From the NCBI GenBank assembly GCA_050633305.1, contig JBOEGF010000001.1, positions 1 to 64,000 on the forward strand: DNA of 64,000 nucleotides, given 5' to 3'. Made by a program: the position numbers and the translations under genes. Under the pieces are notes generated by a model, which searched no databases, was not told where the DNA came from, and worked only from the letters and a program-made list of their open reading frames with translations. Shown here piece by piece: positions 14,194 through 26,695 of this stretch; within the stretch, counting starts at the first letter, position 1, and the number at the start of each line of letters is the position of its first letter. The stretch comes from Nannocystales bacterium. GTDB lineage: Bacteria > Myxococcota_A > Polyangia > Nannocystales > Nannocystaceae.

Positions 14194-14565
14194 ATGAAGC
14201 TGGTCTTGCCTCTAGCGCTCGGTTTGGGCGCTCTCGCGTGCGGCGACCCGACGGGGCCCACCACGCCGATCGATGGGAAGCAGATCTACGACCAGTACTG
14301 CGCACGGTGCCATGGCGTCGATGGGGCAGGCGTCGAAGAACAGCCTGCAGCGTTGGGGCGACTCAACAACCTGCCGTTGATGTCGTCGAAGAACGATCAG
14401 CAGATCATGGGTGTCATTCGGGCAGGCAAGCCGCCCAACATGCCTGGCTTCGCGGGTGAGTTCACCGAAGCCAAACTCATGGTGTTGACGGCCTACGTTC
14501 GCTCGCTGTCCCTGCCGGGCGTGGGTGCCACCCCCACTGAAGCCAAGCCGGCGGCGCCCGAGTGA
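14194..14565 (+). CDS. Monoheme class I cytochrome c lipoprotein
   Basis: MKLVLPLALGLGALAC lipobox; GKQIYDQYCARCHG heme motif; MPGF candidate axial Met. Confidence 0.9.
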   Translation: MKLVLPLALGLGALACGDPTGPTTPIDGKQIYDQYCARCHGVDGAGVEEQPAALGRLNNLPLMSSKNDQQIMGVIRAGKPPNMPGFAGEFTEAKLMVLTAYVRSLSLPGVGATPTEAKPAAPE

Positions 14566-16250
14566 GCTCGCAGCCCGGGCCTGAGCTCGTCTGGCCCGGC
14601 AAGTACGCCGAGGACGGCTCGCTCTTTGAGCCCGAACGCTCCGGTGCGGTCGCGAAAACGGTGCAGCAGATCGGTCGTGGATCCGAACCCGATCGCGTTT
14701 TGCACGGCGACAACCTCGATGCGCTCGACGCTCTGGTCCAGACCCATGCGCAGCAGGTCGACCTCATCTACATCGATCCGCCGTTCTCCACCGGGGGACA
14801 GTTCCAGGTCGCGACCCGGGTAGGAAAAGGAGAGTCCCGCAAGGCACCACCGGAGATCCGCGCGCCTGCGTACAGCGACCGCTTTGATGGGGGCCCGACC
14901 GGTTTCCTTCAGATGATGGCGCCCCGCCTCCGCCGGATGCACGCCTTGCTCGCGCCGCACGGGAGCTTCTACTTGCACGTCGATCCGACGATCGGGCACA
15001 TGGCCAAGCTCCTGCTCGACGAGGTCTTCGGGCCCGAATGCTTCCAGCGCGAGATCGTTTGGCGCATCGGATGGATCTCGGGGTTCAAGTCCAAGGCCAA
15101 GAACTGGATTCGCAACCACGACCTCATCTACTTCTACGTGAAGGACCCCCAGACCTTCACGTTCAACAAGATGTACGTGCCGTACCCGGACGGCTACGTC
15201 CGGCGTGACGGGAAGCGACCCACCGGCAAGGGCGTCCCGATCGACGATGTGTGGAACGCAAACACGTCCGAGTTCGCCCTGCGAGGCAAGGACTCGCTCG
15301 ACTCGATCCAGATCAAGAGCTTCTCGGGCGAGAAGTGCGGCTACGCCACGCAGAAGAACGAGAGCCTGGCACGGCGGGTGATCGAGGCGTCTTCCAACCC
15401 CGGCGACCTCGTCCTCGACGCGTTTTGCGGGTCGGGTACGCTTGGGGTGGCAGCGCGAGGCTTGGGTCGACGTTTTGTCGGCATCGACTGCTCGGCATCG
15501 GCGGTGCATATCGCGACCAAGCGGCTGTTGGACGTCGACGTTGAAGACGCTCCGCCGGTTCGCGTCGAGCGGGTTGTTCAGCCCGATCGCAGTGAGCGGT
15601 TCGCCGCGCGGGTCCGCGACCACCTGGGTATCGAGGGGGACACCCTGGATGGGACGAGGGTGGTCATCGCTGGGTACGACGAGGCGGTCACGTCCGAGCG
15701 TATCGAGGCGTGGGCGCAAGGAGTCGGGGATGCGTTGGTCGTCGTCGGGCGTCGCTTCGACCTCCCCTTGCGCGGGGTTGAGGTCTCAGGCGTCGACCTC
15801 ACCGTGCTGCGGGTCTCCGAGGACCTGTGGAACGACGCGGTCGCGGCCGCCCGCGGTGCCGCCGTCCATGAGCTCCCGACCGTCGGGCTCGACGTGATGC
15901 GTGAGGGGGACACCTGGTCGCTGGTACTCGACGACTACGGGGTGCCGCACCCTCAGCGTCTGGACCCGGAACTCGTCGCAGCGGTGCAGGATCCGCTCGA
16001 CTTCGTCGACGCTTGGTCGATTACGTGGAACGCGTCGCCTTTGCTCGCACTGCAAACCGACGTTGCGTACGCACGGTCCCACCAGCGCCGGACGTTGCCG
16101 AACCGGTCGGAGCCTCAGCCGCTGCCCACCGCTGCGCAGTCGATCCGTGTGCGCCTCGTCGATGTGCTGTTTCAACACAGCACGATCTCGGCCAAGGTCG
16201 TGCCGTGCCCCGAGGCAGGGGTTCGACTCGAAGACGTTCGCCTACGGTGA
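14562..16250 (+). CDS. Site-specific DNA methyltransferase (N6A/N4C, beta class, Mod-like)
   Basis: GDNL, YIDPPF (motif IV) precedes DAFCGSGT (motif I); REIVW, DDVW, TQKNE; extra C-terminal domain. Confidence 0.9.
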   Translation: MSSQPGPELVWPGKYAEDGSLFEPERSGAVAKTVQQIGRGSEPDRVLHGDNLDALDALVQTHAQQVDLIYIDPPFSTGGQFQVATRVGKGESRKAPPEIRAPAYSDRFDGGPTGFLQMMAPRLRRMHALLAPHGSFYLHVDPTIGHMAKLLLDEVFGPECFQREIVWRIGWISGFKSKAKNWIRNHDLIYFYVKDPQTFTFNKMYVPYPDGYVRRDGKRPTGKGVPIDDVWNANTSEFALRGKDSLDSIQIKSFSGEKCGYATQKNESLARRVIEASSNPGDLVLDAFCGSGTLGVAARGLGRRFVGIDCSASAVHIATKRLLDVDVEDAPPVRVERVVQPDRSERFAARVRDHLGIEGDTLDGTRVVIAGYDEAVTSERIEAWAQGVGDALVVVGRRFDLPLRGVEVSGVDLTVLRVSEDLWNDAVAAARGAAVHELPTVGLDVMREGDTWSLVLDDYGVPHPQRLDPELVAAVQDPLDFVDAWSITWNASPLLALQTDVAYARSHQRRTLPNRSEPQPLPTAAQSIRVRLVDVLFQHSTISAKVVPCPEAGVRLEDVRLR

Positions 16251-19014: not shown

Positions 19015-20802
<1,788 letters not shown>

Positions 20803-20955
20803 AGCTCGCAGAAGGTAGCACAATAGGCGCGAAACCCCGCTTGGCGGGATGGGTCCACACGGCCCCGCCCCTGGTCATGCGTGCCGCCCCGATGCTGCTG
20901 AACTGTGTGACAGGGGCGGTTGGCCAATGGTGGGCGGCCAGGATATAGCGGCTCG

Positions 20956-22065
20956 GTGAACGGACGCTCTGCGCACGAACCGAGCGAAGGTGGCCCGGTG
21001 CGGTCCGGCTCGGCGCTGTCGGCTCGATTGAGCCGTCCGCCCCCGCGATTGGAGCTGGCTGAGCTGCCCACGCCCGTGGAGCGCGCGCCTTGGCTCGACA
21101 CGACCCGGGCCAAGGTTTGGATCAAGCGGGACGACCTCAGCAGCCCGATCTACGGCGGAGGCAAGGTCCGCAAGCTGGAGTGGATTCTTGCCAACGCTCC
21201 CTTCGACACCGACGCCCCGATCTTGAGTCTCGGCGGCATCGGTAGTCACCACCTATTGTCGCTGGCGTTGTTCCTGCGGACCCAAGGACGGACCCTGCAT
21301 GGCCTCACGTTCACGCAGGCGAAGACCGCCCACGTGAAGAAAAACCTGGCCGTGTTGCTGTCCTGCGGGGCGCGGCTGTGGAACGTGCCGACGCGGGCTG
21401 AGCTACCCAGAGCGTGGCTGGCCTATCACCTCTGGGATCGCCCCGAGCGCAAGGGGGTTTCGATGTCGGCGGGGGCCAGCACACCGCTGGGGTGTTTCGG
21501 CTTCGTCGACGCAGCATTCGAAGTCGCGGCCCAGGTGGGCGCGGGTCTGTTGGCCAAGCCGGATGTGCTGTACGTGACCGCGGGCTCCGCGGGGACGGCA
21601 GCCGGGCTCGCACTCGGGTTTGCGCTGGTCGGGATGCCCCTGCACATGCACTTGGTCTCGTCCGTCGAGCCCTGGGCGTTCAACCCGTTGATGATGGAGC
21701 TCAAGATGCGCGGCGCTCTCAAGGCGCTTCGTCGTGCGGGGCTCGAGGTCGCGGGGAGCCCTCGTTCGCTGCTCCGCGCTGCGGGCGTGACCTACCAGGT
21801 CGACTATGACGAGGTCGGCGCCGGGTACGGAGAGCCGACTCAGGCGGGGCTCGATGCGGTCGCGGTCGCACAAGCCCACGGGATCGGCCTCGAACCGACC
21901 TACACCGCCAAGTGTGTTGCGGCGTTGCTCCGGACCGAGGCGCACGACCGTGGGCGGCCCCACAACGTGTTGTTTTGGCACACCCACGCGGGCAACGACC
22001 TCACCTCGCAGATCGAGCCGGGTTGGGAAACGCGCAGCCCGGTATCCTTCGACGGCATCGACTGA
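20956..22065 (+). CDS. PLP-dependent D-cysteine desulfhydrase/ACC deaminase family protein
   Basis: PTPVE, IKRDD, GGGKVRKLE, GSAGTAAGL, LEPTYTAK, LFWHT; GTG start at 20956 preferred. Confidence 0.88.
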   Translation: MNGRSAHEPSEGGPVRSGSALSARLSRPPPRLELAELPTPVERAPWLDTTRAKVWIKRDDLSSPIYGGGKVRKLEWILANAPFDTDAPILSLGGIGSHHLLSLALFLRTQGRTLHGLTFTQAKTAHVKKNLAVLLSCGARLWNVPTRAELPRAWLAYHLWDRPERKGVSMSAGASTPLGCFGFVDAAFEVAAQVGAGLLAKPDVLYVTAGSAGTAAGLALGFALVGMPLHMHLVSSVEPWAFNPLMMELKMRGALKALRRAGLEVAGSPRSLLRAAGVTYQVDYDEVGAGYGEPTQAGLDAVAVAQAHGIGLEPTYTAKCVAALLRTEAHDRGRPHNVLFWHTHAGNDLTSQIEPGWETRSPVSFDGID

Positions 22066-22103: not shown

Positions 22104-24185
22104 GTGGCGGAAACGGTGCACGAGCCGCTGTCCGACGGACGGCGCCTGGCTTGGTTGACCCTGCCGACCGACGGCGATGGTCGCTTCGGCGCCGTCCAGC
22201 TCGATGGGCTGGAGAACGCGCTCGACGCTGCGTTGGGCGACAGCGAGGTGGCGGCGGTCGTCCTACGGAGCGGGGAGGCCGGTTTCTGCGGCGGACTTGC
22301 TCTCGAAGCGTTTGCCCAGCCAGGTGACCGGCGCTCGGTTGCGGCGACCGCCAAACGACTCCACCGCCTGCAGGCGAGGATGGCGGGCGGCCGTGTCCCC
22401 TGTATCGCTGCGGTCGCGGGAGCCTGTCTCGACGTGGGCCTCGACCTTGCGCTCGCGTGTGGCCACCGGATCGCAGCCGACCATCCCGATGTCCGGATGG
22501 GACTTCCGCAGATCGAGTTGGGCCTGTTGCCGATCGGCGATGCGCTCGCCCGGCTTCCAGGCGTCGTCGGGTTCGAAGCTTCGCTCGATCTGTTGCTCGA
22601 GGGCGAGACGATCGGTGCGGCCCATGCTCGTCGGTTGGGACTCGTGGACGCCGTCGTCCATCCTGCGGGGCTCGAAGCGGCGGCACGCGAGGCCGCGCGG
22701 AGTGCTGCTGCTGCAGGTGCGCCGCCCAAGAACCGCCGTGCGTGGCGACCTGTGTTGCCCGGAGCAGCGCTTCGCAACCGACGCTCCCTGCAGCGCTGGC
22801 AGGAGACGCGGCCCCATGACGACGCACTGGGGGGGGCACGGCTGTCCGCGCTCGAACTCTTGGGCCGCGGCCGCATTCAGGACACGGCCGAGCTGACGAC
22901 CATCTTCAGCGAAGCGGCGGTCTCCGATGCCACCGCCACTCGGCTGCATACGTGGCGATGCGCCCGGGCGCTCGAGCGATGGACTCCGCAGGCGGATGTG
23001 GCTGTGCCCACGCTGACCCGTCTGGGGATCGTTGGCGGCGGCGCTGTCGGGGCTGATCTGGCTGTCGTGGCAGCCCGGGCTGGGGTTTCGGTCCGCATCC
23101 GCGAGAAGTCTCCGCCCGCGCTCGGACGAGCGTTGGCACGGGTCGAGGCCAAGGTCGCCGGCGATCGGGACCATGAACGGCGGACCCGGGCCCGGGCGCG
23201 GCTGAGCGGCGGCCTGGAGCTCGACGGCTTTTCCACGATGGACCTGGTGCTGGAGTCGGTGCCCGAGGAAGTGGCGGTCAAGCGTCGGGTGTTCGCCGAA
23301 CTCGAAGATCGCGTTCGGCCACAGACCATCCTCGCGACCCACCCTCGTGCGACGCCGGTCTCGGAGATCGGGGCTCGAATGCAGCACCCGGAGCGCCTCG
23401 TCGGTATCCGGGTGTTCCGCCCGCTGTCGCGCCGCCCGCTGTGTGAGATCATCGCGACGCCCCAGACCTCCGCTCGGGCCCTCGCGGCGGCGGTGGGCTT
23501 CGCACGTCGAATCAACAAGACGCCGGTCGTCGTTCAGGATGGCCCGGGGTTCTTCACCACACGCGTGCTCGCGGCATACCTGTCTCATGCCGGGGAGTTG
23601 GTCGCGGACGGGTTCTCGATCGACGACATCGATCGCGGTTGCCGTCGCGCAGGGTGGCCGGTTGGACCACTGCAGTTGCTCGACTTCGTCGGGCTGTCCA
23701 CCGCTGTCCGCGTGGGCCACGTGTTGACCGCGGCTCTGGGGGATCGGTTCGACGTGCCCATGCCTCTGGAGGCGATGGCTGCGACCGGACGCGCGTTCTA
23801 CCGTCCCTCGCGTACGGGACCAGACAAGGAGCCCGACCCGCGCGTGCACGACTTCCTCGGGGTGACGACATCCCGCGTCGGCGATGCCGATGAACTTGGC
23901 GAGCGGCTCACGTTGGTGGCGGCGATCGAGGCGGTCCGCTGTCTGCAAGACGGGGTGTTGGCGCGTCCTTCCGACGGGGACGTCGCCGCCGTGCTTGGCC
24001 TGGGCTACCCCGCCACCCGCGGGGGCCCGTTTCGCCACTTGGCGGCACGCGGGTTGGCGGCGGCTCGAAGCCGACTCTCGGCGCTCGAAGATCGCTTCGG
24101 CAGTCGCTATCGTGCGCCCCAGCTGCTCGTCGAACTCGCCGAGCGGGGCAGCGACTTTTCAGCCATGGAGGACGCCTCGTCATGA
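22104..24185 (+). CDS. FadJ/FadB-like fatty-acid oxidation complex alpha-subunit homolog, catalytic residues substituted
   Basis: Crotonase domain (GACLDVGLDLALAC, GLPQIELGLLP), Rossmann GIVGGGAVG, KTPVVVQDGPGF, GWPVGPLQLLD, GLGYP..GGPF. Confidence 0.85.
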   Translation: MAETVHEPLSDGRRLAWLTLPTDGDGRFGAVQLDGLENALDAALGDSEVAAVVLRSGEAGFCGGLALEAFAQPGDRRSVAATAKRLHRLQARMAGGRVPCIAAVAGACLDVGLDLALACGHRIAADHPDVRMGLPQIELGLLPIGDALARLPGVVGFEASLDLLLEGETIGAAHARRLGLVDAVVHPAGLEAAAREAARSAAAAGAPPKNRRAWRPVLPGAALRNRRSLQRWQETRPHDDALGGARLSALELLGRGRIQDTAELTTIFSEAAVSDATATRLHTWRCARALERWTPQADVAVPTLTRLGIVGGGAVGADLAVVAARAGVSVRIREKSPPALGRALARVEAKVAGDRDHERRTRARARLSGGLELDGFSTMDLVLESVPEEVAVKRRVFAELEDRVRPQTILATHPRATPVSEIGARMQHPERLVGIRVFRPLSRRPLCEIIATPQTSARALAAAVGFARRINKTPVVVQDGPGFFTTRVLAAYLSHAGELVADGFSIDDIDRGCRRAGWPVGPLQLLDFVGLSTAVRVGHVLTAALGDRFDVPMPLEAMAATGRAFYRPSRTGPDKEPDPRVHDFLGVTTSRVGDADELGERLTLVAAIEAVRCLQDGVLARPSDGDVAAVLGLGYPATRGGPFRHLAARGLAAARSRLSALEDRFGSRYRAPQLLVELAERGSDFSAMEDASS

Positions 24186-25429
24186 TGGGAGGACGCATTG
24201 CGGTCGTGGACGCGGTCCGCACGCCGTGGAGCCCACGCGGAGGCGGCCTGTCGGGCATGTCGGCCGCAGCACTGGGGGCGGTCGTCGTCCGGGACCTGTT
24301 ACTACGCGCCGCAGTACTGCCCGAGGTTGTCGACCTGGTCGTGGTCGGCTCGGCCCGCAGCGGAGTCTCCGGCTCGCTCGGAGCCGAGGTTGCGTTCCAC
24401 GCCGGGGTCGATGCGGTCGCACCGAGTGTGTCCATGGGCTCGGTCTCGGGCGAACGCGCCATCGCGGAAGCGTCCCGAGCCATCCTCGTCGGCGACATCG
24501 ATACCGCCGTCGCGGTGGGTGTTGAGACGCCCAGCGACCTGCAGGTGGGCCTGTCCGCGCCGCTGCGCGAGGCGGTGATGGGAACCAGGCGAGGGGAGAC
24601 CGCCGGGGACAAGCTGCGTGCATGGGCGGGGGTGAAAGCCACCGACCTCCGACCGACCGCCGCGGTTCTGCGAGATCCGATCTCAGAGCAACCGCTCGCG
24701 GCGGCGGCCGAATCCGTCGCGCTGCGATTCGGACTCGATCGCGCCGCGCAGGATGCCTACGCCGTCCGCTCCCATGCTCGAGCGTTCCGGCGGGTCCGCG
24801 AAGGCGCTGCGGAGGTCGTTCCTGTGCCAGCCCCCGCGGGCGCGGGGGTGATGGTCGTGGAGCATGACGAGGGTCCTCGGGCCGAAGTCACCGCGCAGAG
24901 TTTGGCCCGCCGCGCCTCGTTGGCGAAGGCAGGCGCCGCGCTCTCCGTGCCTGCATCCATCGCCACCGTCACCGGCGGAAACCTCTCCGTGCCCGCCGAT
25001 GGTGCCGCCGCGGTGCTGCTCACCCGGCCGGACCTGGCCCGCAGTCGAGGCTGGCCCATCCTCGGGGAGATTGACGGTGCCCGATTCGCCGCCGCCAACC
25101 CGTTCACCTCCCCGAGATTCGGCGGATCGCAGGCCCTCGACCGGCTGCTCGAAGAGAAGAACGAGCGGCTTGCAGACTTCGCCGTCGTTGAAGCGTCCGA
25201 GTCTGCCGCTGCGTTTGCCCTCGCGTTGCTCGCATCGCAACCCGAGCTCGACCCCGATGTCCTCAATCGGTGGGGCGGCTCGATCGCGCTGGGCCGCTGT
25301 AGTGGGGCGTGCGGCGTGCGTCTGTTGGGAACCGCGGTGCGCCGAATGGCGGCGGCGGGCGTGGACAAGTCGCTGGTGGTCGGAAGCGGCGCCGCGGGTC
25401 ACGGCGCTGCGCTTCTGATTCGGCGCTGA
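24182..25429 (+). CDS. FadI-like thiolase homolog, catalytic residues substituted
   Basis: IAVVDAVRTP, QDAYAVRSHARA, VTGGN..ADGAAAVLL, LNRWGGSIALG; ATGA overlap with the fadJ-like gene. Confidence 0.85.
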   Translation: MMGGRIAVVDAVRTPWSPRGGGLSGMSAAALGAVVVRDLLLRAAVLPEVVDLVVVGSARSGVSGSLGAEVAFHAGVDAVAPSVSMGSVSGERAIAEASRAILVGDIDTAVAVGVETPSDLQVGLSAPLREAVMGTRRGETAGDKLRAWAGVKATDLRPTAAVLRDPISEQPLAAAAESVALRFGLDRAAQDAYAVRSHARAFRRVREGAAEVVPVPAPAGAGVMVVEHDEGPRAEVTAQSLARRASLAKAGAALSVPASIATVTGGNLSVPADGAAAVLLTRPDLARSRGWPILGEIDGARFAAANPFTSPRFGGSQALDRLLEEKNERLADFAVVEASESAAAFALALLASQPELDPDVLNRWGGSIALGRCSGACGVRLLGTAVRRMAAAGVDKSLVVGSGAAGHGAALLIRR

Positions 25430-25433
25430 CGCG

Positions 25434-25898
25434 TCAGCCTGCGGATTCGGCGAGGATCTTGGAGCCGAGCTGACGGGCGAGTGCGCCGTCGATCTCGTCC
25501 TTGTGGTCCTTCATCAGCGCACCCATGAGCTTGCCCATCTCCTTGGGGCCCGAGATGCCCACCTTTGCGATCACGTCGCGGACGAGCGCTTCGGTGGCAG
25601 CTTCGTCGAGCTTCTTCGGCAAGAACTGCTCGCAGAACGCCAGCTCAAAGCGTGTCTCTTCCATGGCATCGGCAGCGCGGTCGCCAGCCTTGTCGAGCTC
25701 GACCATCGTCTTGCCCAATTGCTTTGCGTAGGCGGCGATCGTCTCCTGCCACAGGGCGTCGTCTTCTTCCCGATCGGCACCCGACTTCACAACGTTCAGA
25801 ACCTTCGCGCGGAGCATGGCGATCACGTTCTTCGTGGGCTCGTCGCGGTCACGTCGAGCCTGCTTGAACTTCTCTTGGATCTTCTCGCGGACGGACAT
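25434..25898 (-). CDS. GatB/YqeY domain protein
   Basis: Start at MSVREKIQ; FLPKKLDE, KEMGKLMGALM, IDG. Confidence 0.88.
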   Translation of the reverse strand: MSVREKIQEKFKQARRDRDEPTKNVIAMLRAKVLNVVKSGADREEDDALWQETIAAYAKQLGKTMVELDKAGDRAADAMEETRFELAFCEQFLPKKLDEAATEALVRDVIAKVGISGPKEMGKLMGALMKDHKDEIDGALARQLGSKILAESAG

Positions 25899-25957: not shown

Positions 25958-26695
25958 CTACCTCCCACGGTCGGTGTCGCGAGTCTCGCGGATGCGGGCG
26001 TAGGCTTCGCTGCGGGCCCCTCGGTGCGCCTCGAGCAGCTCGGTGGAGACGGCCCCACGTTGCAATGCGCGAAGAAACCGTCGGTGCGCGCCTTGGCTCA
26101 TCGGGTCGCCCCGGCCGAGCGCTGCGATGGTCGTCTCGATCGTGGCCGGGAGCGCGGTCCGGGCTACGAGGTGGGTCAGGGCGCCGGCTTCGGCCAGCGC
26201 GTCCGCATGGACACGTTCGCCCAACAACAGGAGCCGCCGAAGGATGGCTTGGCCCAGGACAGCGTGCAGCCGCTGCAGGCCTGCCGCGTGATAGACGACG
26301 CCCAGCTTTGCCGCGGGGATTGCGAACCATGCGTCGTCGCAGGCGATGCGGAGGTCACAGGCGCAGGCCAGCTCTAGGCCGGCCCCGATTGCGAAGCCGT
26401 TGATCGCCGCGATGAAGGTCGCGTCCGCGGACTCGATCGCAGCGGTCGCCTCGGCCAGCGGGTGGTCGGGCGGCGGGCCGTCGGCGCTGGGTTGCAACGC
26501 GGTCAGGTCGAACCCGGCACAGAACGCGCTGTCGCCAGCGCCACGCAGGACGACGGTCTCTCCGCGAAGTGTCGCGGACCGTCGCGAGATCCAGCGAAGG
26601 GCTTCGGGTCCAATCGCGTTGCGACGCTCGGGTTTGTCGAGGGTCCACCACAGTGCGCCGTCCCGGCTCTCCTCGTGCAGGCCGACCGGGCTCAC
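25958..26695 (-). CDS. Enoyl-CoA hydratase/isomerase (crotonase) family protein
   Basis: LDKPERRNAI, AFCAGFDL, IAAINGFAIGAGLELACACDLRIA, PAAKLG. Confidence 0.9.
   Translation of the reverse strand: MSPVGLHEESRDGALWWTLDKPERRNAIGPEALRWISRRSATLRGETVVLRGAGDSAFCAGFDLTALQPSADGPPPDHPLAEATAAIESADATFIAAINGFAIGAGLELACACDLRIACDDAWFAIPAAKLGVVYHAAGLQRLHAVLGQAILRRLLLLGERVHADALAEAGALTHLVARTALPATIETTIAALGRGDPMSQGAHRRFLRALQRGAVSTELLEAHRGARSEAYARIRETRDTDRGR

Follow-up and report, generated by a model that had tools for sequence, protein, structure and literature searches.

A FadJ/FadI-derived gene pair, substituted at all three active sites and probably repurposed, in a genus of Nannocystaceae

The window analysed here comprises positions 1 to 64,000 of contig JBOEGF010000001.1 from a Nannocystales bacterium (assembly GCA_050633305.1, family Nannocystaceae), and none of its 64,000 nucleotides is an N. 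It contains a two-gene operon encoding an alpha and a beta subunit with the architecture of the beta-oxidation complex FadJ/FadI, in which catalytic residues are substituted at the hydratase, dehydrogenase, and thiolase sites. From sequence, fold, and synteny, the pair is best explained as this lineage's ancestral FadJ/FadI beta-oxidation complex, altered stepwise. It is virtually certain to have a selected function, has in all likelihood lost its canonical role in beta-oxidation, and has very probably taken on a new job.

Both open reading frames (693 and 415 aa) are stop-free at the positions given in Table 1 and are joined by an ATGA overlap. A crotonase plus HAD alpha chain followed by a thiolase beta chain is the FadJ/FadI domain arrangement. 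The best solved relative of alpha is Escherichia coli FadJ (8bnu, E 4.5e-96), and those of beta among thiolases are the trifunctional enzyme (TFE) beta subunit and FadI, with which it aligns including the inserted helices. AlphaFold models show full folds for alpha (predicted local distance difference test score, pLDDT, 88; template modelling score, TM, 0.91 to FadJ 6ysv) and beta (pLDDT 90; TM 0.85 to thiolases), so the catalytic residues have been substituted, not displaced. An earlier note on this DNA had described two full-length, stop-free, ATGA-coupled frames with FadJ/FadI architecture, and the structure matches and models agree with it; the alignment to FadJ/FadI and TFE structures that it proposed as a check likewise finds residues replaced and not shifted. 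The stop/start overlap recurs in all seven genomes of the genus (ATGA in six, GTGA in one), as does a GGAGG motif (7/7). No sigma-70-type promoter match was found, and the single terminator-like match scores below the shuffle mean. A look-up of RNA runs listed none, which bears on expression in neither direction. The two chains probably still assemble, with two alpha chains mounted on a central beta dimer, and may do so at the membrane as FadJ/FadI does.

At the hydratase site, the second catalytic Glu aligns without gaps to Q136 (codon CAG at 22509), present in 7/7 genus genomes. Loss of this Glu is inactivating (PMC10988713, excerpted text). The first Glu is Asp (the last D of DVGLD) in this genome only and Glu in the other six, so that this genome has D114/Q136 in place of the two glutamates. 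The changes fixed in the genus are G>D110 and E>Q136; most intact orthologues in the family already have Ala for the middle Gly of the GGG motif. The PEV to PQI change claimed by the earlier note is thus borne out by codon, its GGGLE to DVGLD change holds for D110 and fails for the final D, and AGAD to GGLA is not a fixed change, since the motif varies as GLD, GLR, or GLA.

At the dehydrogenase site, in gap-free alignment, the catalytic Ser is R415 (CGT at 23346) and the catalytic His is R436 (CGG at 23409), accompanied by N>H413, T>P414, S>R439, and L>C447. The nucleotide site, judged by residues, is kept: GxGxxG (G311-G316), E334, E384, and K393 are invariant, with E448, in 17/17 aligned sequences. 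In the GxGxxG loop, a Met has become Val, a change absent from the earlier note. Members carrying the new residues, called rewired here, have H413/P414/R415/R436 in 18/18 rows and canonical members have N/T/S/H in 20/20, in rows chosen by hand from the tree, which describe the contrast and do not test it. Among 142 database alpha clusters not picked by motif, the 117 outside the 25 top-ranked have the catalytic His in 117/117 and the Ser in 116/117; the 25 top-ranked have 16 Arg and 9 His at the His position. The His to Arg and SNTSS to THPRA changes and the retention of GxGxxG, the E..K motif, and the FadI-type inserted helix are accordingly as first described. VNR to TTR, read earlier as a loss, is a lineage trait, FYTTR being common to the family's intact FadJ orthologues and to this genome's own intact FadB. 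In the literature, the dehydrogenase His acts as proton acceptor and is anchored by Glu (PMC10988713, excerpted text), and in Mycobacterium tuberculosis a Ser points into the site from the side of the TTR motif (PMC11301753, excerpted text), whose positional match to the TTR here we infer.

In beta, the thiolase nucleophile Cys is S87 (TCG at 24440), the His of HEAF is S339, the His of GHP is R372 (CGC at 25295), and the second Cys is S402 (AGC at 25385), again without alignment gaps. Instead of Cys, N/HEAF, GHP, and Cys, beta therefore presents S87, SESA, GRC (with P>C373), and S402. The HEAF to SESA change and the deletion of a 16-aa C-terminal loop are absent from the earlier note; the FadI-type inserted helices are kept. 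The substitutions SRAC to SMGS, GHP to GRC, and TACAAGG to VGSGAAG are confirmed, but the nucleophile position is not fixed, reading S in 3/7 and D in 4/7 genus genomes. The three catalytic positions and the conserved pocket positions M/G, F248, F342, and P315 are changed in 9/9 or 8/9 beta rows, while core residues stay. A covering loop shapes the acyl tunnel in thiolases (PMC7337054, excerpted text); acyl-tail binding by beta remains conceivable because residues 121-160 appear to correspond to this loop by position. Dead thiolases alone are not rare: 15/143 distant thiolase-fold matches to beta (within P0062-P0181) are without the GHP His, several reading GNP or GDP and having no cysteines, so that other dead-thiolase groups exist.

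The pair is present in 7/7 genus genomes (identity 67-90% for alpha, 78-95% for beta), in the other six in a matching neighbourhood as far as the contigs reach. Ratios of nonsynonymous to synonymous substitution (dN/dS; Nei-Gojobori, seven pairs each) are 0.049-0.207 for alpha and 0.034-0.148 for beta, beside 0.078-0.256 for the intact FadB, 0.057-0.154 for FadA, and 0.064-0.192 for the neighbouring pyridoxal-phosphate (PLP) enzyme gene, all of them rough values with dS near saturation (proportion of synonymous differences, pS, 0.51-0.63; dS about 1). R415, R436, R439, P414, and beta R372 are each written with two to four synonymous codons while the amino acid never changes in the seven genomes, so the new residues themselves are under selection. 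It is the dehydrogenase half of alpha and beta residues 1-160 that carry most of the constraint, with the hydratase relaxed. In five genomes, invariant sites make up 286/391 (73%) of the alpha dehydrogenase half against 230/392 (59%) in the active FadB, 80/200 (40%) of the alpha hydratase against 125/200 (62%) in FadB, 131/160 of beta 1-160, and 137/240 of beta 161-400, counts in which sites are non-independent and the two genes compared may differ in history. Beta residues 85-150, running into the inserted helices, are invariant at 60/66 positions. Catalytic residues lost, fold kept, and purifying selection are the marks of a pseudoenzyme, and the frame breaks and dN/dS near 1 of a pseudogene are not seen. 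The comparison with myxobacterial orthologues suggested earlier thus finds the substitutions conserved in the genus at dN/dS below 1. That all three sites were lost is correct for the catalytic residues; in constraint the three sites are unequal.

The history of the locus can be read across 72 Nannocystaceae genomes. A FadJ-type alpha occurs in 28 of them: 7 rewired, 19 intact (Nannocystis and two other genera), and two intermediate in the tree, G012 and G017. The intact genomes keep the dehydrogenase His/Ser and the thiolase nucleophile Cys in 19/19 and the second hydratase Glu in 18/19. G012 carries a half-converted pair at the same locus (G012:C215:3585-7024, L053), which retains both hydratase glutamates and the dehydrogenase His, has Leu in place of Ser, and includes a thiolase without Cys/His/Cys. 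G017 (G017:C212:5857-7992, L057; genome 78% complete) has intact alpha motifs on a long branch and no downstream thiolase on the contig. Separately, an otherwise intact FadJ (G048:C32:566927-569086, L124) has changed its second hydratase Glu to Gln, an independent instance of that change.

Rewired alphas form a clade (ultrafast bootstrap, UFBoot, 100), nested successively with database member P0017 (99), G012 (100), G017 (79), and the intact orthologues (100). The beta tree is a ladder matching that of alpha, and both trees have long branches. Nesting within intact Nannocystaceae FadJ, together with synteny, establishes descent from the FadJ/FadI clade: intact fadJ-fadI lies after the PLP gene in 12/13 loci (two loci being duplicate genomes). 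P0017 and P0208 read SHTRA/THTRA, with H413 and R415 present while the catalytic His is kept. P0013/P0204, P0015/P0205, P0017/P0207, and P0018/P0045, in each of which the longest contigs of the two members match in length, are probably alpha/beta pairs encoded as neighbours, and full-length database members extend down to 48% identity. Read along the ladder, the thiolase cysteines would have been lost first and dehydrogenase N>H and S>R would have followed; hydratase E>Q would have come last, together with the His>Arg changes of the two chains. In 9/14 PLP-gene loci from genomes without alpha (sister genera), YqeY follows the PLP gene directly, marking an empty site; in a flanking-gene tree two empty-site genera adjoin this genus, a placement quoted without branch supports, which re-rooting may have displaced. 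A motif pattern run over the 72 genomes matched the rewired gene in 7/7 genus genomes; 8 further matches in 8 genomes were not this gene by eye and are taken as chance. A phylum sample of 400 other genomes, in which the best 2 candidates of each were scored and which included 4 family members but none of the genus, gave 0/400 matches at E<=1e-170. Two metagenome contig scans gave no match, the pattern of one leaving out Ile codons so that its blank has little weight, and the ESM Atlas returned only generic 3HCDH clusters.

Compared with E. coli FadJ/FadI (6ysv, 8bnu, 8bnr) and human HADHA/HADHB (6dv2, 5zqz), the pair has the same domain order and fold, FadI/HADHB-type helices in beta, and FadJ as its best NCBIfam model. 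It differs from them in the catalytic residues of all three sites, in the overlapping alpha-beta gene order, and in the missing loop of beta. Alpha scores 424 bits against the FadJ equivalog cut-off of 869, of which an intact Nannocystis orthologue also falls short (766). The intact fadJ-fadI pairs of Nannocystis and two other Nannocystaceae genera are orthologues by both their shared clade (UFBoot 100) and their placement behind the PLP gene, with identity of about 40% in alpha and 33% in beta. Descent and fold make the pair FadJ/FadI, whereas its catalytic features, as read from the sequence, place it outside that group. For a binder, the closest precedent in function is M. tuberculosis EchA6, an inactive beta-oxidation fold, a dead crotonase kept to bind acyl-coenzyme A (acyl-CoA) (PMC7688586, excerpted text); EchA6, however, is a single crotonase, whereas here the crotonase is relaxed and the whole two-subunit complex is rewired. 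Canonical thiolase cysteines are also lost with the fold retained in Sal/Ltp2 aldolases, TbSLP, and HMGS/ACAT/DUF35 acylases (PMC12329534; PMC12960953). Those are SCP2-type or DUF35-associated, and the present operon has no DUF35 gene; the YDCY/YDHF motif of Sal/Ltp2/SLP (PMC12329534, excerpted text) is absent from beta, which reads ASESA/ASEPA there. Searches of open-licence papers found none on a rewired trifunctional complex.

Beta-oxidation, by the evidence of the sequences, is covered by other intact genes in this genome. An intact FadA/FadB lies on contig C9, so the second complex that the earlier note advised looking for exists; it is of M. tuberculosis type and 31% identical. Orthologues of this FadB (at least 58% identity to the C9 copy) occur in 46/72 genomes. 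Every one of the 9 genomes whose pair is rewired or partial has such an orthologue and 0/19 with intact FadJ do, which suggests that the second complex freed the first; the pattern reflects one or two events. It counts against this that a different second alpha is present in 10/19 intact-FadJ genomes (and intact in both of those inspected), and simple redundancy as the sole cause is thereby weakened. A FadI-like thiolase with intact motifs and very low dN/dS (0.03-0.12) was seen at G000:C18:812106-818458, in a cluster that, by eye, we take to resemble a reductase / dehydratase / acyl-CoA dehydrogenase / TetR unit. As a candidate active partner this lone thiolase was set aside, since it groups with other thiolases and sits in a cluster of its own.

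The earlier reading of repurposing rather than decay is upheld by intact orthologues, dN/dS far below 1, fixed new residues, and a canonical complex elsewhere. For the function itself, we give about an even chance to a non-catalytic complex in which an arginine-lined dehydrogenase cleft would bind an anionic ligand alongside nicotinamide adenine dinucleotide (NAD(H)), and the thiolase would serve as scaffold. The Rossmann domain of alpha would still bind NAD(H), because GxGxxG, E334, E384, and K393 are kept, while R415, R436, and mostly also R439 would block hydride-transfer chemistry. These arginines would form an anion-binding cleft, the simplest ligand being a CoA ester or some other metabolite that bears phosphate or carboxylate groups. 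The ligand might open or close the cleft, and a partner would read that movement, presumably encoded elsewhere because the operon has no output domain. Beta would be structural, with Arg plugging its site and the CoA-pocket residues lost, and the hydratase domain likewise. Several points tell against such a binder: NAD+ might bind less well with two arginines next to its nicotinamide, Val/Ile replaces the Met that stacks on the nicotinamide in 16/18 rewired rows, no regulator or output gene adjoins the pair, and near-saturated dS leaves the dN/dS support rough. A kept NAD site with new invariant His, Arg, and Arg beside the retained Glu would be equally compatible with new catalysis, so that the earlier claim of a non-catalytic complex stands as the likeliest reading and not as an exclusive one.

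In that alternative, less likely but the main rival, the dehydrogenase domain would use NAD(H) in a new reaction whose substrate is anionic and probably not a CoA ester (a free hydroxy or oxo acid, a sulfonate, or a phosphate ester); the arginines would bind and polarise the substrate, H413 would be a new acid/base, and beta and the hydratase would be scaffold. Lactate and malate dehydrogenases use a His plus arginines, a loose analogy for such a site. The dehydrogenase domain is under the strongest constraint, E384, K393, and E448 never vary, and the site was rebuilt rather than emptied, with H413 and R415 fixed before the His was lost, as in a site under retuning. Yet an Arg makes a poor base where the His stood, H413 occupies what we take to be the ribose-binding Asn position, a 1100-residue complex is uneconomical for a small-acid reaction, and the pair is accompanied by no pathway gene. 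The thiolase family offers precedents for rewired chemistry in the Sal aldolase (PMC12329534, excerpted text) and in the repurposed thiolase complex of streptococci, an acylase (PMC12960953).

It is improbable that the pair is purely a structural or membrane scaffold that organises or anchors other proteins or lipids, its arginines binding an anionic lipid or protein partner and any small-molecule ligand being irrelevant. FadJ/FadI-type complexes are membrane-associated (PMC11301753, excerpted text), the near-invariant stretch of beta would suit this role, and the NAD-binding domain of rewired members has a net charge of +5 to +13, whereas that of this genome's FadB has -8; a positive domain (+3 to +7) is also seen in some intact orthologues, however, and the fixed residues gather within what was the active-site cleft while nucleotide-binding residues are kept. 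A thiolase with Ser as nucleophile can retain weak activity, and the first hydratase Glu is found in 24/24 aligned lineage clusters, but a residual beta-oxidation role, or an inhibitory subunit of an active complex, is very improbable when this genome has Asp for that Glu, no domain is less conserved than the hydratase, and the nucleophile position is Asp in 4/7 genomes. The inhibitory subunit proposed earlier thus finds little support, the active complex being 31% identical and of a subfamily that assembles differently (PMC11301753, excerpted text). Young pseudogenes decaying after redundancy are scarcely credible: the long branches, the loss of the pair in sister genera, and a frame change in the alpha of G001 would fit, but that change falls at a run of 10 N and cannot be judged, frames are open in 6/7 genomes, full-length members reach far in identity, and dN/dS of 0.03-0.21 at dS about 1, the fixed residues, and the rewired/canonical contrast refute decay unless the genes prove unexpressed.

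Databases annotate these rewired proteins as ordinary beta-oxidation enzymes. One locus within one family offers intact orthologues, half-converted and fully converted pairs, and clean deletions, which makes the order of losses testable protein by protein and gives experimental access to a second or non-catalytic role of trifunctional enzymes that is normally masked. That a trifunctional complex has become a new kind of metabolite sensor or a new NAD-dependent enzyme through recoverable intermediates, with parallel His>Arg changes in both subunits, is a tentative generalisation, rather less than evenly likely, and its scope so far is one uncultured genus plus few metagenomic relatives.

Table 1. 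Features of the FadJ/FadI-derived pair and its immediate neighbours (window coordinates).
Feature	Position	Strand	Basis and remarks
Alpha subunit, FadJ-derived, 693 aa	22104..24185	+	ORF, structure match, Pfam, model
Crotonase (hydratase) domain, aa 1-205	22104..22718	+	D110 for Gly, Q136 for the second Glu, D114 for the first Glu (D114 this genome only); constraint relaxed
Dehydrogenase half, aa 300-693	23001..24182	+	Most constrained part of alpha
Beta subunit, FadI-derived thiolase fold, 415 aa	24182..25429	+	ORF, structure match, model
Shine-Dalgarno-like GGAGGA near the end of, and within, the alpha gene, plus ATGA stop/start overlap	24166..24185	+	Sequence
PLP-dependent enzyme, D-cysteine desulfhydrase/1-aminocyclopropane-1-carboxylate (ACC) deaminase family	20920..22065	+	Pfam PALP, NCBIfam below cut-offs; start codon uncertain
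YqeY-like gene, convergent, downstream	25434..25898	-	Pfam YqeY; marks empty site in sister genera

The PLP gene lies upstream of both intact and rewired fadJ and stays where fadJI is deleted. Its product is probably no dedicated partner of the pair, and coupling of the two was rejected on account of this persistence. A crotonase-family gene at 25958-26695 (minus strand) keeps the first Glu motif, has by eye an Ala at the second Glu, and is conserved also where fadJI is deleted. Further upstream, an N6/N4 DNA methyltransferase gene (14562-16250, plus strand), whose start is overlapped by a cytochrome c gene and beside which no nuclease was seen, is conserved in the genus neighbourhood. The gene at 19015-20823 (minus strand), a conserved divergent neighbour of the PLP gene, encodes an N-terminal CxxC..CxxC, a long acidic/Pro-rich linker, a hydrophobic segment, and C-terminal tetratricopeptide repeats.

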